Source: Candidatus Omnitrophota bacterium (GTDB lineage Bacteria > Omnitrophota > Gorgyraeia > JAHJTE01). Taken from it: DNA of 64,000 nucleotides. The notes under the pieces were generated by a model that was not told where the DNA came from, ran no database searches, and saw nothing but the letters and a program-made list of their open reading frames with translations. Of this stretch, positions 13,835 to 53,026 are shown piece by piece; position 1 is the first letter of the stretch; every line of letters starts with the position of its first letter. Location of the stretch: positions 1,715 to 65,714 of the forward strand of contig JBFMEB010000003.1 in assembly GCA_040753675.1 (NCBI GenBank). The letters run 5' to 3'. The position numbers were made by a program, and so were the translations under genes.

Positions 13835-16348
13835 CTAGAAGAGGCTCAACTGCTCTTCTTGTTTTTTATCTTCGTTTTCGTCAAATATCTTAATAGTGCC
13901 ATACTCTCCGTCGTAGCCAGCTAATATTTTAACTCTTCCCTCGCGCACTCTTAAGATTCCTTCAGCTATGCGTGGGTTAAGAGATTTCTTTAACTCTTCT
14001 TTTGGCACATTAACTAATACCTCAAACTCAGTTTTGAATTTACTTATAATAGAAAAATATTCTTTTTCAACTGTCTGACTAACTTTTCCTACGCCTTTTG
14101 CCTCGGCAATTATTTCATCTAATGGTATTAAATTCTTGAAGGCAATTGCATTTTCTGGATTAAAGCCTTCAGGCCTATCTGCCAATTGTCCTACTCTATT
14201 CATAACCCCTATAGTTACTGGCTTGCCACATTTAGGGCATTTGCCATTATGCTGCTTAGTCTCTTTCGGTGAAAGTCTAATCTGGCAAAGGCGGTGACCG
14301 TCATAATGATATTTTCCCTCTTCGGGGAAAAATTCTATTGTGTAGAGAAATCTCTTTTTATCTTTTGTTTTTAAAACTTCACTGATGGTGTGATAGTCTA
14401 ACTCGCAGTCAAAAACATTTGCTTCCCGGCCAATTCTCGACGGAGAGTGACTATCTGAATTGCTGATCAGGGTAAATCTATCTAAGGCGCTCAGGCGCCA
14501 GTTCATAGATGGATCAGACGATAAACCGCTCTCAAGAGCAAATATTTTTGAAGTTTGTTCTTCAAAGCAGTATTCAATTTTATCAAAACCAGACATTGAA
14601 CCAAAAAGACTAAACCAAGGGGTCCAGCAATTATGAACAGTAGCGAATTCACATACATAAGAATTATCGTCTTCCACTTCTAAATTATAAACAGCTCCTT
14701 TATACTTTTCTTTGAGAATACTTCTAATCGGAAGATATGCATATTTATCATCTATCCAACCATGTCTCGATGGTGATTTTGTTCGAAATTTTCTAAGATT
14801 GCTTTCTTTTAATAAACCAAACTTGTCCTCAAAGAAAGATAGATTGTTGAAATGAAATATATTATGCCGAGCTGATATTCTCCTTAATCCTATAAAATGT
14901 TTACCACGATTTTCATATCCATCTGTAGAATCTATGCCGATGGAAGGAATTATGCCCAATCTTAAGAATATTGCTTTCATTTGATTCATCAAAGTTCGAG
15001 AAACAGTATATCCTCCATCTCCGCGCCACCAACCCTTTACAATCTCTACTTGTTTTTCAAGAGATAATTCTAACATCCATTCTGGCAAACACTTAGTATG
15101 AGCTTTCTTTATTTTTGTATTTATATAGAATAGCCTGCCGAACAATTTACATAAAACCTTGGAATAGAAAATTAACTCTGCTCCTTTCGTATCTTTTTTA
15201 ATGCGCATCTTTGATAAATCGGCATCAAAGATTTTTTTCATTAAATTTATTACATCTTTAATATATCCCTTTTCATTGCTGGAAAAACAAAATGAAACAC
15301 AATCTCTGTTATTTGTATACCCTTCAGAAACAAAATATCCTACTAATCTACAAAAATCCTTATTAATATCAATATCATTATTGATAAAATTCACTTTTGA
15401 GCCTCTATATGCGATTTTATTTCTTTTTAAAATTAATTTTTCTGGCAATAGTTTATTTATTTGCAAACTAACCCTCTCTTTAATTTGATTATTAAACCTG
15501 GGGAAAATTAAAATATCATTGATTTCGAGGTCTTTGGCTTGCACCCATTGTGGGCAATATTGGTTAAAAAATCTTCGGCTGCATCCTTTATATTGCAATT
15601 GAGAACATTTTGGCATACAAAAACTACCCCTCGAACGACAATTCTTATATGATTTTATTATATAAAATGGATGTTCTGGAGTAGTTTTTATGCCCTCTCT
15701 AAAATAATAAGGTTTTATATGAAATAATTCTCCCGTGTATTCTCTTCTAAATGATTTATTAACTTCTCTAAATCGCATTTTATGAGTATATACATAATCA
15801 TTCTTTGCGATATCTTGTATCAGTTTCAATCCATTAGAAGTATGCACAAAAGTATCTGGCAGGAGACAATGCGCTGGAACAATCATGCACTGCGGCGAGA
15901 TATCAAATACAATTTTTGCCAAATCCCGTGCATCCAGGCCTAATATCGGCCTGCCGTCTGAGGCAAGATTGCCAATGCCGGAAAGATGTTGGTTTATCTC
16001 ATCTACAATTTTAAACGATGGCGCAATGATAAGGTTATGTATCCGATAAGTCCTGCCTTTTTTAGAATATATACTGCTTACCTCTGCGGTGAGTATAAAA
16101 TAAATGCCCTTTCCTCCAGAATCCGTAGCGGACCCGCCGCTCTTTGTGGCGGGATGTATAAACAGGCCATTGCCTAAATCTTCTAAATTATGCTTTAATT
16201 CTTCAAGCCACAAGTGATGAGTAAAATCACCCGTCCCCATTAGAGTAATGCCCTTTAACTTAGCCCAGTCAGCAATATGTTTTACATCCATATCCTTGCT
16301 GGTAGCGCGAGAGTATTTTGAATGAATGTGGAAGTCGGCGATAAACAT
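13835..16348 (-). CDS. EndoQ-like PHP-domain nuclease (TIGR00375 family) interrupted by an intein
   Basis: The N-terminal PHP domain FIADFHIHSKYSRATS...GTGDFTHH and the C-terminal zinc ribbon CPKCGKP match endonuclease Q-type proteins. A 413 aa intein separates the extein halves. Confidence 0.65.
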   Translation of the reverse strand: MFIADFHIHSKYSRATSKDMDVKHIADWAKLKGITLMGTGDFTHHLWLEELKHNLEDLGNGLFIHPATKSGGSATDSGGKGIYFILTAEVSSIYSKKGRTYRIHNLIIAPSFKIVDEINQHLSGIGNLASDGRPILGLDARDLAKIVFDISPQCMIVPAHCLLPDTFVHTSNGLKLIQDIAKNDYVYTHKMRFREVNKSFRREYTGELFHIKPYYFREGIKTTPEHPFYIIKSYKNCRSRGSFCMPKCSQLQYKGCSRRFFNQYCPQWVQAKDLEINDILIFPRFNNQIKERVSLQINKLLPEKLILKRNKIAYRGSKVNFINNDIDINKDFCRLVGYFVSEGYTNNRDCVSFCFSSNEKGYIKDVINLMKKIFDADLSKMRIKKDTKGAELIFYSKVLCKLFGRLFYINTKIKKAHTKCLPEWMLELSLEKQVEIVKGWWRGDGGYTVSRTLMNQMKAIFLRLGIIPSIGIDSTDGYENRGKHFIGLRRISARHNIFHFNNLSFFEDKFGLLKESNLRKFRTKSPSRHGWIDDKYAYLPIRSILKEKYKGAVYNLEVEDDNSYVCEFATVHNCWTPWFSLFGSMSGFDKIEYCFEEQTSKIFALESGLSSDPSMNWRLSALDRFTLISNSDSHSPSRIGREANVFDCELDYHTISEVLKTKDKKRFLYTIEFFPEEGKYHYDGHRLCQIRLSPKETKQHNGKCPKCGKPVTIGVMNRVGQLADRPEGFNPENAIAFKNLIPLDEIIAEAKGVGKVSQTVEKEYFSIISKFKTEFEVLVNVPKEELKKSLNPRIAEGILRVREGRVKILAGYDGEYGTIKIFDENEDKKQEEQLSLF
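14630..15868 (-). mobile_element. intein with LAGLIDADG homing endonuclease domain inside the EndoQ-like gene
   Basis: Splice junctions are PAH/CLLPDTF at the N-terminal end and TVHN/CWTPW at the C-terminal end. Internal LAGLIDADG-like motifs are LVGYFVSEGY and GWWRGDGGY. The upper coordinate is uncertain by 1-2 nt. Confidence 0.7.
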
Positions 16349-24981: not shown

Positions 24982-27411
24982 TTATTCTTCTTCTGCCACT
25001 ACCGGCGCCATACAGGCAACCTTGTCTTTCGCCTCTAATTTAATCAAGCGCACGCCTTGGGCTGCCCTGCCTGTGGCGCGGATATCCTTAACGCTGCAAC
25101 GCACAATCATGCCATTTTGAGTAATGGTCATAATTTCGTCTTTGTCAGTTACAGACAATAAATTCACTGCCGGGCCATTTTTATTTGTTACCTTTATATT
25201 GATAATGCCTTTACCTGCCCTTGATTGCAGCCGGTATTCTTTCGCCGAAGTCCTTTTTGCAAAACCCTGTTCAGTCACAGTAAGGAATGTGTCTTCCTTA
25301 TCCGGAATTTCCATTGCAATAACATTATCGTTTTTGCCTACAGAAATTCCTTTAACTCCCTTGGCAGCCCTGCCCATTTCCCTGACATGTTTTTCTGGGA
25401 AGCGCACTGCCTTGCCAAGCCGGGTTGCCAGTAGAATTTCTTGTTTGCCGTCGGTAACCTTAACGCTTATTAGTTGATCATTTTTTTCTAAGGTTAAGCC
25501 GATAATTCCGCCTTTGCGCGGGTTGCTAAACGCATCCAGCCGGGTCTTTTTAATCAGGCCGTTTTTCGTAGCCATAACCAAAAATTTATCTGCGCTAAAC
25601 TCTTTAACCGGGATGCAGGCGCTTATCTTTTCTTGGCCCTTAAGCTCTAATAAATTAACTATTGCCTTGCCTTTTGACATGCGGCTTGCCTGGGGAACCT
25701 CGTGCACCCTTAGCCAAAGAACCCTGCCTGAATCTGTAAAGCAAAGGATGTAATCATGAGTGGAGGCAACAAAAAGATGCTCGATAAAATCCTCTTCTTT
25801 GACCTCTGCGCCAGTAACCCCCTTGCCGCCTCGATGCTGTTTGCGGTAACTGGAAACCGGCAATCTCTTGATGTAGCCAGTATGGCTTATGGTAATTACC
25901 ACATCTTCTTCGGCAATCAAATCTTCTATGTCTAACTCCTGGACTTCGCCAACAATCTCGGTCCTGCGTTCATCAGAATATTTTTTCTTTAGCTCTGACA
26001 GTTCTTCTTTTATGAGTGCCTCGACCTTTTTTTCAGACGCCAATATCGAACGCAAAATTTCTATTCTCTTAATTAGCTCCAGATACTCGGCCTCAATCTT
26101 ACTTCTTTCCAAGGCAGTCAAACGCTGCAATTGCATCTCTAAAATTGCCACTGCTTGCTCTTCGGAAAGCTTAAAGTTTTTCATTAACGCCTGTTTTGCC
26201 TCAGGAACGCTCTTTGATTGCTTAATCGTCTTGATTACCGCATCTAAATATTTTAAGGCGATCTTTAAGCCCTCTAAAATATGGGCTCGTTTTAATGCCT
26301 TATCTAATTCGAACTGGGTCCTGCGCCTGATAATCTCTTTTCGGTGAAGAATAAAATAATGCAGCGCCTGTTTTAGATTCAAAACTCGGGGCCGGTTTTC
26401 TACCAAAGCCAGCATAATAATCCCAAAGGTGGTTTCCATCTCTGTATGTTTAAATATTTGATTTAACACCACCTGGGATTCGGCATCGCGTTTTAACTCT
26501 ACCACAATGCGTATACCATCTTTATCTGACTCATCCCGAATATCGCTTATTCCTTCCAGTTTTTTATCTGTAACTAATTGTGCAACGGATGTGATAAGAT
26601 TTGCTTTGTTAACCTGATAGGGCAGCTCTGAGATTACAATGGAATCTTTACCGCCTTTATGTTTTTCAATCTGAGCCCGGGCGCGGACAGTTACTTTACC
26701 TTTTCCGGTTTCATAGGCCTCTTTTATGCCTTTTCTGCCGCAGATTATCCCGCTGGTCGGAAAATCTGGCCCTTTGATATGTTTCATTAAATCTTTAACC
26801 TCGCAATCAGGGTTATCGAGCAAATAAGTAACTGCGTCGCAAACCTCGCCTAAATTATGAGGTGGGATGTTGGTTGCCATGCCTACCGCTATGCCACTTG
26901 AGCCGTTAACTAAAAGATTTGGCAAGCTTGCTGGTAATAATACTGGTTCGGTTAATGAGCCGTCAAAATTAGGAGAGAAATTTACCGTTTCCTTTTCGAT
27001 ATCTGCCAGCATCTCAGACGAGATAGCAGCCATCCTTGCCTCAGTATACCTCATCGCTGCCGGAGAATCTCCATCAATTGAACCGAAATTCCCCTGACCT
27101 TCTATTAGTGGATAACGCATAGAAAAATCCTGAGCCATACGCACCAAGGTGTCATACACCGCAACATCACCGTGAGGATGGTATTTTCCTAAAGTTTCGC
27201 CCACGATACGAGCGCTCTTTTTATAGGGTTTAGTATGGTCGAGACTAAGTTCGTGCATAGCAAACAAAATCCTTCTATGCACTGGCTTTAAGCCGTCACG
27301 CACGTCAGGCAATGCCCTGCCAACAATAACGCTCATCGCATAGGAAATGTAAGAATCCTTCATTTCCTCTTCAATATAAATCGGGACTATTTTTTCGCCT
27401 TGTGTGTACAT
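24982..27411 (-). CDS. gyrA: DNA gyrase subunit A
   Basis: 809 aa with the active-site Tyr region [10 protein letters not shown] and C-terminal beta-pinwheel repeats. Confidence 0.95.
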
Positions 27412-27590
27412 CTACTCCTCGCTTTCGCTCGTCGTAATTACAAATTTCAAATATTACCAAATCCCAAAACAAATCCAAAATCCTAAACAAACACCCAAAA
27501 ATAAAAGATAAATAATATAGCCTATTTTAGTTGGGATTTTGAAATTGGGATTTATTTGGTAGTATTGGTAATTGGAATTTTGTCATTTTG

Positions 27591-31280
<3,690 letters not shown>

Positions 31281-31294
31281 TTATTCCTCCATAA

Positions 31295-31597
31295 TTATCT
31301 GCGCTCGTCTGCGATTTTACCAATACGTAATCTGATATCTCTAAGCTCGTTGTCTATCTTTTTAAGTTTATCTAAGACCTGTGCTTTTTTTAAGCGCAGC
31401 ATATACATCCAGGCTGAACTGTCAACATTAATTATCAAGATACCATTTCTTAGTTGAACCGGTTCGGAGTGTTTAGCACAAGAGTTACCTACTAAATTTT
31501 TCCATTTATCTAATATTTTTTTTGTCGTATTGTGCTGGCCTAAATTTATCCGTTTGATTATATTTTGGATTGATTCAGGCTGTTGTTGTATATGCAT
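31295..31597 (-). CDS. DUF721 (RemB/DciA-like) protein
   Basis: 100 aa basic protein between dnaN and gyrB. This is the conserved position of yaaB/remB (DUF721) in Firmicutes-like origin regions. Confidence 0.4.
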   Translation of the reverse strand: MHIQQQPESIQNIIKRINLGQHNTTKKILDKWKNLVGNSCAKHSEPVQLRNGILIINVDSSAWMYMLRLKKAQVLDKLKKIDNELRDIRLRIGKIADERR

Positions 31598-31603
31598 ATT
31601 ATC

Positions 31604-32704
31604 TTACAGCCGCATTGGCAAAACAACATATTGGTAGTTAGGCTCTTTTAAAACCGCTGGTTTTTCAGGGTCGCTTATTTCAATATTAATTTGTCCAGTG
31701 GTTAAATTCTTCAATGCCTCTATAAGATAATAAGGATTAAACCCAATTACAGTTTCCTTACCATTATATTGCATTGGAATCTCTTCTCTTGATTCACCCA
31801 AGTCAGGAGTAGATTTAGAAACTACCATTTTATTTTTAAATAACTCCAACCTTACTGCCTGATAATCGCTTGTCGCCAATAGGCTTGCCCGTCGTAATGC
31901 TGCCAAAAAAGCCAGGCGTTCAATTTGTATCGTATAGGGATTATTCGTAGGTATAACCTGTTTATAATTAGGAAATTCTCCTTCAATTAGACGTGACACA
32001 ACACTGGTTTGGCCCATTTCAAAAAGCACTTGGTTTTCCGATATAACCATAGCTATTTCTTCATCGCTTTGATTAATACTGCGCATTAATTCCTGTATAG
32101 TTTTTGCCGGAATAATCATACTTATTTTTTTTGAGGCGTTTCCATAGACAATATCTTTTGAAATTATTGCCAGGCGCCTACCATCAGTAGATACCAACCT
32201 TAAGTTTGTTCCTTCTATTTCAAAAAGAATACCATTTAAAACATAACGCGTCTCATCTTTAGACATGGAAAATGATGTCAATTCTAACATTTTTGCTAAC
32301 TCAACAGGATCTATTTTAAGCACGTCTTTATTTTTAAAATCAGGTAGTTGCGGGAATTCTTCTTTTGGTAGTCCCATCAACCTAAAACTACACTCTTTAC
32401 ATTCAATATTAATAGAATTGTTTTTCTTTACCATAATCTTCACTTCTTCTTCTGGAAATTCCCGAATAATTTCTGAAAATTTCTTTGCTGGTATAGTTAT
32501 TGCTCCAGATTCATTTATTAGTGCCGGAACTAAAGTGGTAATACCAATATCTAAATCAGTGGCGGATATTTTTATTTTAGAATCAATACTTTCTATTAAA
32601 ATATTAGAAAGGATTGGTAAGTTTGTTTTAGGATTAATGACATTTAAAACTTTTAAAATGGCTTCTAAAAAAAGTTCTTTTTTAATAGAAATTTTCATTA
32701 ACAA
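31604..32704 (-). CDS. dnaN: DNA polymerase III subunit beta (sliding clamp)
   Basis: 366 aa with a three-domain beta-clamp pattern, located downstream of dnaA. Confidence 0.9.
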   Translation of the reverse strand: MLMKISIKKELFLEAILKVLNVINPKTNLPILSNILIESIDSKIKISATDLDIGITTLVPALINESGAITIPAKKFSEIIREFPEEEVKIMVKKNNSINIECKECSFRLMGLPKEEFPQLPDFKNKDVLKIDPVELAKMLELTSFSMSKDETRYVLNGILFEIEGTNLRLVSTDGRRLAIISKDIVYGNASKKISMIIPAKTIQELMRSINQSDEEIAMVISENQVLFEMGQTSVVSRLIEGEFPNYKQVIPTNNPYTIQIERLAFLAALRRASLLATSDYQAVRLELFKNKMVVSKSTPDLGESREEIPMQYNGKETVIGFNPYYLIEALKNLTTGQINIEISDPEKPAVLKEPNYQYVVLPMRL

Positions 32705-32862
32705 CTCCTTTTATTAACTACTTAAGTATAATTTAAAAAAGCAGTAGTATTTAGTAGTATTGTTGAAATTTATAAAAATTATCTTAACCTTTTTCATTTA
32801 AAGCAATTATTCTTTATTTATATTTTTAATAAATTCTTTATAACCTGTTGATAAATATTAAA
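32705..32862. promoter_or_regulatory. candidate oriC / DNA unwinding element (AT-rich dnaA-dnaN spacer)
   Basis: 158 bp of more than 80% A+T with a DnaA-box-like ttatcaaca (complement at 32846..32854). This is the classical oriC position between dnaA and dnaN. Confidence 0.4.
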
Positions 32863-34197
32863 TTATTGTTTAATGTTTTTTAATATGGTTGCTACAAAAG
32901 AATTTACCTGTTTGTTTTTTACCATCTCAACCTTGATTTTATTACAGGCATATAAAACAGTGGTATGATCTTTTCCGCCAAATGCCTGGCCGATTTCAGG
33001 TAATGACTGGTTGGTTAATTCTCTTGATAGGTACATGGCGATCTGCCTTGGTAAAATGACATTTTTATTTCTGCGATGCGAACGTAATTCATTTACAGTT
33101 ACATTAAATACATTGGCTACCTCTTTTTGAATTTGGTCTATTGTAATAATTTTAGCAGATTCAGTCAACATATCCCTCAGAACTTCTTGCGTTAGACTTA
33201 AGGTTATTTGTTTATCTTCGAGAAGCGAATAGGCAATAACCCTAATCAACGCCCCCTCTAATTCCCTGATATTTGTCTTTATCAAATCGGCAATAAAATA
33301 AATTACATCCTCCGGAACCTTAATTGGTTCGTTTTCTATTTTCTTCTTTAAAATTGCAATGCGGGTTTCAAAATTTGGCGGCTGGATATCGGTAATCAAG
33401 CCCCATTGAAACCTGGAAAGTAACCTTTCTTCCAGATTAGATATTTCGCGCGGAGGCCGGTCAGATGAAACTACAATCTGCTTATGGTGATCGTAGAGCT
33501 CATTAAAGGTGTGGAAAAATTCTTCCTGGGTTGATTCTTTGCCGGCTATAAATTGGATGTCGTCGATTAATAATATATCCACGTTGCGGTATTTTTCCCT
33601 GAAGGTTGAGGTTGAGCGGTGCTGTATTGCGCTGATAAGCTCATTTGTAAATTTTTCACTGGGCATATAAACAATTTTAGTAAGCGCGTTCTTATTTAGA
33701 ATAAAATGAGCTACTGCCTGCATCAGGTGAGTTTTGCCTAGCCCGACCCCGCCATATATGAATAAAGGATTATATGCCTTTGCCGGGGCCTCAGCCACTG
33801 CTAAGCTAGCAGCGTGGGCAAAGCGGTTCGAAGGTCCAATTACGAATTGCTCAAAGGTAAACCTGCTGTTTAACTTTAGGTTGGTAGCTTGACGGGGTTG
33901 AAGCCGTTGGCTAAAATCAGCGAAACGAGCTTGCTCTGTTTTTTTAAAAGACTGGTTGTTAACACTGATTTCTATTTCTTTATTAAAAGAAGGTTCGCTT
34001 TCTAATAGAGAGTTTTTAATCAAATCAAGGTAATGTTGGATTACCCAGTCTTTGAAAAATTCATCAGGGACTTCCAAAATAAACTTGTTTTCGGCAAGCT
34101 TAACTTGGATTGGCGCAAACCAAGTTTCAATAGCAGTCTGGCCTACCACCCTTTTTATTTTTTCTAAAGCAAGACCCCAAAGGCTTACAGCATCCAT
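32863..34197 (-). CDS. dnaA: chromosomal replication initiator protein DnaA
   Basis: AAA+ Walker A GGVGLGKTHL and a C-terminal DNA-binding domain. The track start (34254) is probably too far upstream. Met20 (MDAVSLW, plus 34195..34197) is more likely and leaves the DnaA boxes outside the CDS. Confidence 0.85.
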   Translation of the reverse strand: MDAVSLWGLALEKIKRVVGQTAIETWFAPIQVKLAENKFILEVPDEFFKDWVIQHYLDLIKNSLLESEPSFNKEIEISVNNQSFKKTEQARFADFSQRLQPRQATNLKLNSRFTFEQFVIGPSNRFAHAASLAVAEAPAKAYNPLFIYGGVGLGKTHLMQAVAHFILNKNALTKIVYMPSEKFTNELISAIQHRSTSTFREKYRNVDILLIDDIQFIAGKESTQEEFFHTFNELYDHHKQIVVSSDRPPREISNLEERLLSRFQWGLITDIQPPNFETRIAILKKKIENEPIKVPEDVIYFIADLIKTNIRELEGALIRVIAYSLLEDKQITLSLTQEVLRDMLTESAKIITIDQIQKEVANVFNVTVNELRSHRRNKNVILPRQIAMYLSRELTNQSLPEIGQAFGGKDHTTVLYACNKIKVEMVKNKQVNSFVATILKNIKQ

Positions 34198-34227
34198 TTT
34201 ATAGATTAATACGAAGAGTTTTACACA

Positions 34228-34247
34228 GTATCCACAGCTTATCCACA
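34228..34247. promoter_or_regulatory. tandem DnaA boxes upstream of dnaA
   Basis: gTATCCACA (34228..34236) and consensus TTATCCACA (34239..34247). Confidence 0.55.
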
Positions 34248-34342
34248 GATTCAATAACCAGGCTTTTACAACAGGTAGTTATTATATACCAGAGAAATTT
34301 GTTTTTGCAAGAGAAATCTTTTTACACAGATGAGCACAGACT

Positions 34343-52807: not shown

Positions 52808-53026
52808 TTATCTTAAGCCCTTGCAATTTTGTTGTCGCTATGATATACTTACTCTGCGAATATAGCCCTGCAGTGTTCGTTGGATAGATTGGATATTTTT
52901 TGAACCAACACAATCTTAAAGGGAGCTCGACTTCATCTGTGCTTGCGGGCAGGATGAGAGGCGCCCACGTGTAACAACAACGGTTCAGATTGCCCTATCC
53001 GACGACACAAGCGGGGTTTTTTATTT

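Follow-up and report, generated by a model that had tools for sequence, protein, structure and literature searches.

The window, by which we mean the whole 64,000-nucleotide stretch of Omnitrophota DNA that was analyzed, carries on its minus strand a gene whose reading frame is unbroken through 837 codons and whose product combines a homolog of endonuclease Q (EndoQ) with an intein. The gene and its parts are as follows.

13835..16348, minus strand: whole precursor (EndoQ homolog plus intein), 837 aa and stop codon, from the open reading frame list
15869..16348, minus strand: N-extein, aa 1-160, ending ..VPAH; opening part of the PHP domain, from the alignment to P. furiosus EndoQ (PfuEndoQ)
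14630..15868, minus strand: intein of 413 aa (residues 161-573 of the precursor); a candidate LAGLIDADG homing endonuclease lies inside its Hint splicing domain
15671..15682, minus strand: intein block B, TxxH, T63-P-E-H66 (precursor 223-226); T63 and H66 invariant in a 44-sequence alignment
15581..15640, minus strand: CX6CX3CX7C cluster, intein C77, C84, C88, and C96 (precursor C237/C244/C248/C256), in a Hint-domain loop (intein ~72-105); putative zinc knuckle
15320..15346, minus strand: first LAGLIDADG motif (block C), LVGYFVSEG, the catalytic position being intein Glu182 (E342 in the precursor); G177, Y178, E182, and G183 invariant in the 44-sequence alignment
15014..15040, minus strand: second LAGLIDADG motif (block E), VKGWWRGDG, the catalytic position being intein Asp284 (D444 in the precursor); W280, W281, G283, D284, and G286 invariant in the 44-sequence alignment
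14630..14695, minus strand: intein blocks F and G, ..VYNLEVEDDNSYVCEFATVHN, last residues His412-Asn413; H412 and N413 invariant in the 44-sequence alignment
13835..14629, minus strand: C-extein, aa 574-837; Cys+1 first, then the remaining PHP domain, the zinc ribbon, and a C-terminal helical domain
14228..14296, minus strand: zinc ribbon, H685/C688/C704/C707 (H-x2-C-x15-C-x2-C), from residue mapping to PfuEndoQ

The identity of the host protein emerges once the insert is removed. The spliced extein is 424 aa long and aligns end to end with PfuEndoQ (5zb8/7k30; residues 4-416, E 8.5e-52) at 34-37% identity in pairwise alignment. A sequence-only reading of this DNA had proposed exactly such a contiguous alignment as a check; we ran it, and the alignment is continuous through the splice junction, with no gap there. 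Likewise, intein-free homologs match residues 2-424 of the spliced extein as one segment. With the insert taken out, the host protein is thus whole again.

The functional residues of EndoQ are retained in this protein. Specifically, the PHP metal ligands of PfuEndoQ are His8, His10, Glu76, His84, His139, and Asp193, plus His195 (PMC5961232). All are kept, as H7, H9, E89, H104, and H160 in the N-extein and as D632 and H634 in the C-extein, where mapping also assigns T576, E606, G608, L609, and N630 to the PHP domain. The lesion-pocket residues His139, Thr142, Glu167, Gly169, Leu170, Asn191, and Asp193 are all retained as well, the one exception in the pocket being Leu168, which is replaced by Ser. 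The residue at -1 relative to the insert, His160, is the equivalent of PfuEndoQ His139, a zinc ligand whose mutation in H139A leaves the enzyme nearly inactive (PMC5961232). The insertion point thus lies at the active site, as the sequence-only reading had suspected when it proposed a conserved, active-site-proximal position. In proteins of replication and repair, inteins are known to cluster at active sites. The same mapping, which extends to the HCCC ligands of the ribbon, confirms the earlier assignment of an N-terminal PHP domain and a C-terminal, EndoQ-like zinc ribbon. In an alignment of 116 sequences, the N-extein additionally has a private insert at ~aa 64-81. Judged by these correspondences, the insert interrupts a PHP nuclease of the EndoQ/TIGR00375 type, with a zinc ribbon and a helical domain.

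The insert has the anatomy of a class 1 intein. Its boundaries are just as they were first read, down to the lengths of the frame and the insert: Cys161 directly follows PAH, and H572-N573 precede Cys574, the +1 residue. The Cys1, the terminal HN, and the Cys+1 are present in 116/116 sequences, comprising the window and 115 full-length homologs, and C1, T63/H66, H412/N413, and C+1 are invariant in both the 44- and the 116-sequence alignments. Intein blocks A, B, F, and G, the absence of which would have told against the original proposal, are present and conserved, as are both LAGLIDADG motifs. The insert has the Hint (Hedgehog/intein) fold of class 1 inteins, and its structure model is of high confidence; the AF2 model of the precursor is of low confidence at both junctions. 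Its anatomy and conserved catalytic residues mark the insert as a class 1 intein. BLASTP finds no significant similarity between the GyrB intein and the EndoQ intein of the window (best E 0.5), which are therefore independent elements.

Nested within the splicing domain is a candidate homing endonuclease. In both of its LAGLIDADG motifs, position 8 is acidic (E182 and D284), and the domain has the alpha-beta-beta-alpha-beta-beta-alpha pseudo-dimer fold of a monomeric, two-motif LAGLIDADG enzyme. Conservation of the endonuclease domain is nearly equal to that of the extein, with mean identities of 56% and 61%, respectively.

Searches against family models, another check proposed at the outset, gave scores below cutoff. 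Pfam Intein_splicing scores 35.3 bits, marginally below its gathering score of 35.8; LAGLIDADG_3 scores 22.2 bits, barely below 22.5; and the NCBIfam models intein_Nterm (19.2-21.9 versus 24.5 bits) and intein_Cterm (13.6-15.5 versus 15.6) are marginally sub-cutoff. Homologs of the precursor do have precomputed PF14890 matches, and PF27218 'MJ0043_C' is precomputed on all listed homologs. For TIGR00375, the precursor scores 211 bits and the spliced extein 178 bits, both below the curated cutoff of 326.6; the source records of several homologs nonetheless read 'TIGR00375 family'.

The TIGR00375 model itself is narrow in its tuning, and intein signal contaminates its N-terminal columns. Specifically, profile positions 2-134 correspond to the last 141 residues of the intein, and position 135 is where the C-extein begins. 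The first 134 positions of the profile appear to be contaminated by intein sequence. By sequence correspondence, this arrangement implies that one seed member of the profile bears an intein, whose homologous sequence would end at the identical site. The source record of one homolog with an intein at the same site (P0114) calls it 'Mja hyp1 intein'. The TIGRFAM comment on MJ0043 says that the protein 'appears to contain an intein', and the Mja Hyp-1 allele is an old catalog entry, dating back to the sequencing of the M. jannaschii genome. The EndoQ intein described here is therefore an ordinary example of a known element, common in related bacteria and very probably catalogued already. Our literature search returned no paper tying the Mja Hyp-1 intein host to EndoQ, with co-mentions of inteins and EndoQ occurring in unrelated contexts, and a search on inteins in the candidate phyla radiation found nothing relevant.

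Two expectations of the sequence-only reading were not supported by the survey of homologs. EndoQ had been called patchy in bacteria; bacterial homologs are abundant and form 3814 clusters (50% identity, E<=1e-3), and GTDB species genomes contain at least 583 confirmed relatives of the extein. An intein in this host had been called unusual; an intein at the same site occurs in 120/120 of the matches listed for the precursor (Omnitrophota, Patescibacteria, and one archaeal bin), and, as noted above, such an intein already has a name. Across the EndoQ family, inteins occur at three or more active-site positions.

Intein-free alleles are also at hand. Among the at least 583 GTDB relatives of the extein, the best 80, which are up to 74% identical to it, all lack the intein, and intein-free relatives share with the window locus the neighborhood pyrB-pyrC-(Mut7-C)-endoQ-SLOG (Omnitrophota). 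On a simple neighbor-joining tree of 196 exteins, built on p-distances and with intein-bearing and intein-free sets sampled differently, intein presence/absence requires at least 38 changes, versus 62±3.4 for random placement and 1 for a single origin. Distances between inteins correlate with those between their exteins (r = 0.60), which argues that much of the inheritance is vertical. In some pairs, intein identity is far above extein identity (97% versus 79% and 83% versus 60%). Base composition differs as well: the intein has a GC content of 30.3% (GC3 23%), in the lowest 1% of equal-length windows, versus 43% and 38% in the exteins, and a relative displays a like contrast (32% versus 45-46%). 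Homing endonuclease genes are commonly low in GC, and low GC gives no date for acquisition. Together, the empty sites in a matched neighborhood, the scattered presence, the identity conflicts, and the AT-rich intein point to what would be an actively homing element.

We consider it very likely that the locus encodes a lesion-specific, EndoQ-type endonuclease made as an inactive precursor, that the 413-aa class 1 intein splices itself out, and that the freed intein homes into intein-free endoQ. The 837-aa precursor would be inactive, as the intein lies between the zinc-ligand His160 and Cys574, within the catalytic center and the lesion pocket. The conserved residues suggest the order of splicing: an N-S acyl shift at Cys161 would be followed by trans-thioesterification to Cys574, then by cyclization of Asn573 with assistance from His572, and then by an S-N shift. 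His160 would thereby be joined to Cys574, and a 424-aa EndoQ would be released with its active site complete. The freed intein, acting as a LAGLIDADG homing endonuclease, would cut intein-free endoQ at the conserved site ..CCN GCN CAT | NNN TGG ACN CCN TGG TT.., and repair of the cut allele from an intein-bearing copy would copy the intein in. Such homing would account for the spread of the element in Omnitrophota, Patescibacteria, and other uncultured lineages.

Could the intein instead be serving its host? The hypothesis here is that the intein splices, is no longer selfish, and is retained as a redox- or zinc-conditional switch on EndoQ maturation, with Cys1/Cys+1 and the four-Cys insert as candidate sensors. 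Several observations fit: Cys occupies both splice nucleophile positions in 116/116 intein-bearing sequences, an intein located at the catalytic zinc ligand must render the precursor inactive, and conservation of the intein is close to that of the extein. The CX6CX3CX7C cluster, too, is kept within the Hint domain in ~88% of homologs (its individual Cys are present in 93-103 of the 116 sequences), and pLDDT is 83-87 across the stretch. A search of the four-Cys insert against PDB sequences returned zero matches at E<=10. Conversely, no part of the intein is less conserved than the Cys-insert region, where mean identity is 38%. Moreover, intein presence/absence is scattered among close relatives, and intact intein-free orthologs are abundant, which argues that the host has no need of the intein. 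The invariant endonuclease residues, the AT-richness, and the intein/extein identity conflicts are, in turn, what a mobile element predicts. We therefore regard a conditional switch as unlikely. Equally speculative is the fuller version, in which the four-Cys loop would be a zinc-/redox-sensing module or a new DNA-recognition module, the Cys1/Cys+1 pair at the catalytic zinc ligand would make EndoQ maturation conditional, and the widespread Omnitrophota/Patescibacteria intein would have become, in part, a domesticated post-translational switch rather than a purely selfish element; we give it little credence.

A decaying remnant that no longer splices, leaving effectively a pseudogene or an inactive precursor only, would be in keeping with the slightly sub-cutoff intein and LAGLIDADG scores from Pfam and NCBIfam and with the poor confidence of the AF2 precursor model at both junctions. 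Low junction confidence, though, is the expectation for any precursor. The 837-codon frame is intact, all splicing and endonuclease catalytic residues are present and invariant over 116 sequences, the intein model is highly confident, and the extein catalytic residues are all retained, all of which makes decay highly improbable. Scarcely credible is the notion that the insert is some Hint-domain insertion other than an intein, such as a bacterial intein-like (BIL) domain, or that the gene is an assembly chimera of unrelated genes: the C1 and HN|C+1 junctions are canonical, keep the frame, and fall at a conserved motif of the host, a LAGLIDADG domain is nested inside, the same architecture recurs in all 120 matches listed, from many independent assemblies, and the EndoQ alignment is unbroken once the insert is removed. 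We rejected the pseudogene, BIL-domain, and chimera readings on the grounds of the intact frame, the invariant residues, and an architecture common to many assemblies. The preferred reading remains that of a splicing, homing intein in an EndoQ-type nuclease.

The weight of this finding as a discovery is small. Its interest is that it connects a characterized nuclease, EndoQ, with the host of the Mja Hyp-1 intein, formerly a 'hypothetical protein', and that EndoQ, described as rare in bacteria, is common among uncultured lineages, Omnitrophota and Patescibacteria included. The presence/absence polymorphism, together with matched empty sites, provides a good natural data set on intein homing between ultra-small bacteria. 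The intein contamination of the TIGR00375 profile is relevant to annotation.

Comparison with known systems begins with the archaeal enzymes. The three-domain layout is common to the Omnitrophota protein and to P. furiosus and T. kodakarensis EndoQ (5zb8, 7k30-7k33). The first zinc-ribbon ligand is His in the Omnitrophota protein and Cys249 in PfuEndoQ (HCCC versus CCCC), the ribbon zinc of PfuEndoQ being held by four Cys (PMC5961232). The position of Pfu Leu168 is occupied by Ser here and by Thr in most bacterial relatives, and the +1 position is Cys here and Ala140 in PfuEndoQ. In a search of 5.8 billion proteins with PfuEndoQ as the query, the 120 matches listed are all Thermococcales EndoQ proteins, 316-440 aa long and thus too short for an intein. 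A bacterial host is not known to have PCNA, so a PCNA-interaction context is not expected.

Bacterial relatives include standalone EndoQ proteins (~410 aa) and EndoQ-UvrD helicase fusions (1000-1200 aa), to which the extein is 50-74% identical as one segment. The intein is absent from them, and at +1 they usually carry Ala or Ile, with Cys in only 5/80. Many carry a C-terminal UvrD helicase, which the Omnitrophota precursor does not.

With respect to the insert, the archaeal LAGLIDADG inteins TliVMA/PhoVMA (7qsu, 7qst) and PI-PkoII (2cw7/2cw8), along with PI-SceI and PI-PfuI, are just 13-21% identical to the EndoQ intein and reside in other host proteins at other insertion sites. The EndoQ intein differs from all of them in its conserved, four-Cys Hint-domain loop. 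Another known counterpart is the Mja Hyp-1 intein of M. jannaschii MJ0043 (InBase / Swiss-Prot), with which the host family, TIGR00375 / PF27218 'MJ0043_C', is shared. The profile, with its intein end at position 134/135, and the name suggest that the insertion sites, between the PAH histidine and the xxTPW motif in the Omnitrophota protein, may coincide. The hosts differ: the Omnitrophota-like bacterium is mesophilic and AT-rich, whereas M. jannaschii is a hyperthermophilic methanogen.

The endoQ precursor is a single open reading frame, and its junction motifs lie exactly where the sequence-only reading had placed them: PAH precedes Cys161, and His572-Asn573 precedes Cys574. These motifs delimit an N-extein of 160 aa and a C-extein of 264 aa.

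13835..16348, minus strand: endoQ precursor, 837 aa, from the ORF list
14630..15868, minus strand: intein, 413 aa, Cys161 to His572-Asn573
15581..15640, minus strand: CX6CX3CX7C cluster, intein residues 77-96, from conservation in homologues

In a 3D model of the whole precursor, the domains are confident and uncertainty is confined to both junctions. The N-extein contains a private Gly/Ser-rich insert (IHPATKSGGSATDSGGKG; residues ~64-81, window 16106..16159, minus strand) that is missing from most homologues and has low model confidence (pLDDT <50 at residues 72-79).

The host protein is EndoQ-type, as had been proposed. Specifically, the spliced 424-aa extein matches the Pyrococcus furiosus (Pfu) EndoQ structures 5zb8 and 7k30-33 over residues 4-416 (E 8.5e-52), and a single uninterrupted alignment crosses the junction (window VPAH↓CWTPWFSLF, Pfu GPAH AFTPWTSLY; the arrow marks the junction). 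Metal ligands H7, H9, E89, H104, H160, D632, and H634 are the counterparts of Pfu H8, H10, E76, H84, H139, D193, and H195. Residues of the lesion pocket are retained, except that Pfu Leu168 is Ser here, and so is the zinc ribbon, whose first ligand is His rather than the Cys of PfuEndoQ. In PfuEndoQ, His139 coordinates the catalytic zinc and, together with Thr142, lines the damaged-base pocket; the H139A mutation nearly eliminates activity (PMC5961232). The intein follows the equivalent histidine, His160 (-1), and stands two residues ahead of the pocket threonine, which bears out the earlier suggestion of an active-site-proximal insertion. Because the intein splits the zinc-ligand His from the pocket Thr region, the active site of the precursor is necessarily incomplete. 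The inferred mechanism is that the precursor is made as a single chain, which the Hint domain would then splice: an acyl shift at Cys161 would be followed by transfer to Cys574, cyclization of Asn573, and an S-N shift. Ligation of His160 to Cys574 would complete the PHP active site of the 424-aa EndoQ, whose predicted activity is incision of DNA on the 5' side of deaminated bases or abasic sites.

In family searches, Intein_splicing, LAGLIDADG_3, intein_Nterm, and intein_Cterm match the intein slightly below their cutoffs, and intein-bearing Tes and PolII models also match; phmmer matches PI-PkoII (E 6e-5). All the intein motifs looked for were found. Two alignments (44 and 116 sequences) show Cys1, block B Thr63/His66, and the terminal His412-Asn413 to be invariant, as are residues of the two LAGLIDADG motifs (G177, Y178, E182, G183; W280, W281, G283, D284, G286), and the +1 residue is Cys in 116/116 intein-bearing sequences. 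These motifs mark the insert as a canonical intein that includes a predicted LAGLIDADG endonuclease. A loop in the Hint domain (intein ~72-105) carries the CX6CX3CX7C cluster, each Cys of which is present in ~80-89% of homologues; a PDB sequence search with the loop returned no match, and the cluster may be a zinc knuckle.

Searching the precursor against 5.8 billion proteins (E<=1e-5) yielded 2537 matches. The best 120 were examined, and all 120, mostly 805-873 aa long, carry the intein, so its presence in an EndoQ host is not the rarity that the sequence-only reading supposed. Among those listed, the closest are Omnitrophota (69-72% identity), and the remainder are from numerous lineages of Patescibacteria, apart from one Njordarchaeales bin. 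Given that the exact precursor is absent from this collection, with best matches only 69-72% identical, the window derives from a fairly novel Omnitrophota-like lineage. The window pyrB reaches 83% identity with pyrB of Omnitrophota MAGs. All 120 Thermococcales EndoQ sequences listed are 316-440 aa and thus have no room for an intein. Two homologues (P0053, P0103) hold two inteins, one at PAH↓C and one at a site b, ETGLS↓C...GN↓SDP, directly after pocket residues Glu167-Leu170 (Pfu numbering). Two others (P0091, P0104) hold a second intein at a site c, SNSD(A/S)H↓C...HN↓SP, directly after Asp193/His195; the site c intein also has an HTH domain. In the EndoQ family, inteins thus occur at no fewer than three places in the active site.

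EndoQ itself is widespread. When 1.84 billion cluster representatives were searched exhaustively by HMMER with the spliced extein (E<=1e-3), 3814 relatives were returned, the majority of the best ones aligning over residues 2-424 as one stretch, and a GTDB scan with the same query, using one genome per species, gave at least 583 confirmed relatives; both counts tell against a patchy bacterial distribution. Among the 50%-identity representatives, the closest intein-free relatives (P0121-P0267) are mostly EndoQ fused to a UvrD/Rep-type helicase (1000-1200 aa; Pfam UvrD-helicase and UvrD_C), unlike the window protein and its Omnitrophota orthologues, which are standalone EndoQ.

The best 80 of the at least 583 GTDB relatives are all intein-free, ~410 aa long, and up to 74% identical; they are mainly Omnitrophota, among them Ca. 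Velamenicoccus archaeovorus, whose genome is complete. Many intein-free loci share the window gene order pyrB-pyrC-(Mut7-C)-endoQ-SLOG, and an intein-bearing relative (L081) has pyrR-pyrB-pyrC-endoQ. These matching neighborhoods indicate orthologous loci distinguished by the intein. The gene directly upstream of endoQ, encoding a Mut7-C RNase domain (PF01927; 16391..16849, minus strand), holds that position in ~14 intein-free Omnitrophota loci and not in L081. The +1 residue of intein-free alleles is mostly Ala or Ile; five of the 80 (L018, L044, L055, L057, L061) have Cys (PAH CWTPW or PAH CMTPW), which may be the footprint of precise intein loss.

On a simple neighbor-joining tree of 196 exteins, in which the two sets were sampled in different ways, alleles with and without the intein are intermingled; the minimum by Fitch parsimony is 38 changes, compared with 1 under a single origin and 62±3.4 when the labels are randomized. 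The correlation between intein and extein distances is only moderate (r = 0.60), and in some pairs the inteins are far more similar than the exteins (97% vs 79%; 83% vs 60%). The intein has a GC content of 30.3% (GC3 23%), versus 43.1% and 38.4% for the exteins and 38.2% for the window. The intein thereby falls in the bottom 1% of 1239-nt windows; elsewhere in the window, GC content is lowest in the dnaN region. The same contrast is seen in a relative (31.9% vs 45-46%). Combined with the invariance of the endonuclease catalytic residues, these data fit, indirectly, an intein that is still homing.

An alternative is that the intein has been domesticated as a "conditional splicing" switch. Nucleophiles that are always Cys at both junctions and the four-Cys loop of the Hint domain would suit such a role; the many intact orthologues that lack the intein argue against it, and we consider it improbable. 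Three further readings (intein decay, a BIL domain, a chimeric assembly) are contradicted by conserved residues, canonical junctions, and many independent assemblies. Under continued homing, the freed intein would be expected to cleave empty endoQ alleles near the conserved CCN GCN CAT ↓ NNN TGG ACN CCN TGG TT, and repair would be expected to copy the intein into the empty allele.

A second gene in the window, gyrB, also bears an intein, one unrelated to that of endoQ.

27591..31280, minus strand: gyrB, 1229 aa, intein-bearing
28692..29990, minus strand: gyrB intein, 433 aa, junctions DSAGG↓CFAAD...VFVHN↓SAKQGRD
31604..32704, minus strand: dnaN, in the row dnaA, dnaN, gyrB, gyrA
32863..34254, minus strand: dnaA, in the same row
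52862..53021, plus strand: 6S RNA (Rfam RF00013, 53.7 bits), just after pheT

The gyrB intein (Pfam Intein_splicing, 76.8 bits; GC 33% vs 40.5% in its exteins) has a Lys/Arg-rich middle domain with no LAGLIDADG match at E<=1e-5, and no similarity between it and the EndoQ intein was found. The genes dnaA, dnaN, gyrB, and gyrA are consecutive on the minus strand (~24982..34254), and the cumulative GC skew is lowest near 34 kb and turns near 34-35 kb; thus, the window probably spans the chromosomal replication origin.

The TIGR00375 profile of the EndoQ family does match, as the sequence-only reading anticipated, but at 178 bits for the spliced extein and 211 bits for the precursor it falls short of the curated cutoff of 326.6. 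Within the profile, the C-extein begins precisely at position 135. The final 141 residues of the intein align to positions 2-134 at 35.5 bits, exceeding the genuine N-extein (27.2 bits), and an artificial fusion of the intein C-half to the C-extein reaches 187 bits as one continuous match, exceeding the genuine spliced protein. These scores therefore point to an intein-bearing seed member, whose intein appears homologous to the window intein and to end at the same junction; the first 134 profile positions appear to contain its sequence. This content may be the reason that genuine EndoQ homologues of bacteria score under the cutoff. The TIGRFAM comment states that the Methanocaldococcus jannaschii protein MJ0043 "appears to contain an intein", which is entered in InBase as Mja Hyp-1. 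Among the 120 precursor matches listed, one bears the source label "Mja hyp1 intein", and PF27218, precomputed on all 120, is named MJ0043_C. This evidence, all of it indirect, strongly suggests that the window intein occupies the Mja Hyp-1 site of MJ0043. The new points are minor: within the library searched, no paper connects inteins with EndoQ; the active-site positions that hold inteins number three or more; and TIGR00375 seems to have intein content. Both the intein allele and its host family were already known, and the window intein is a further case.
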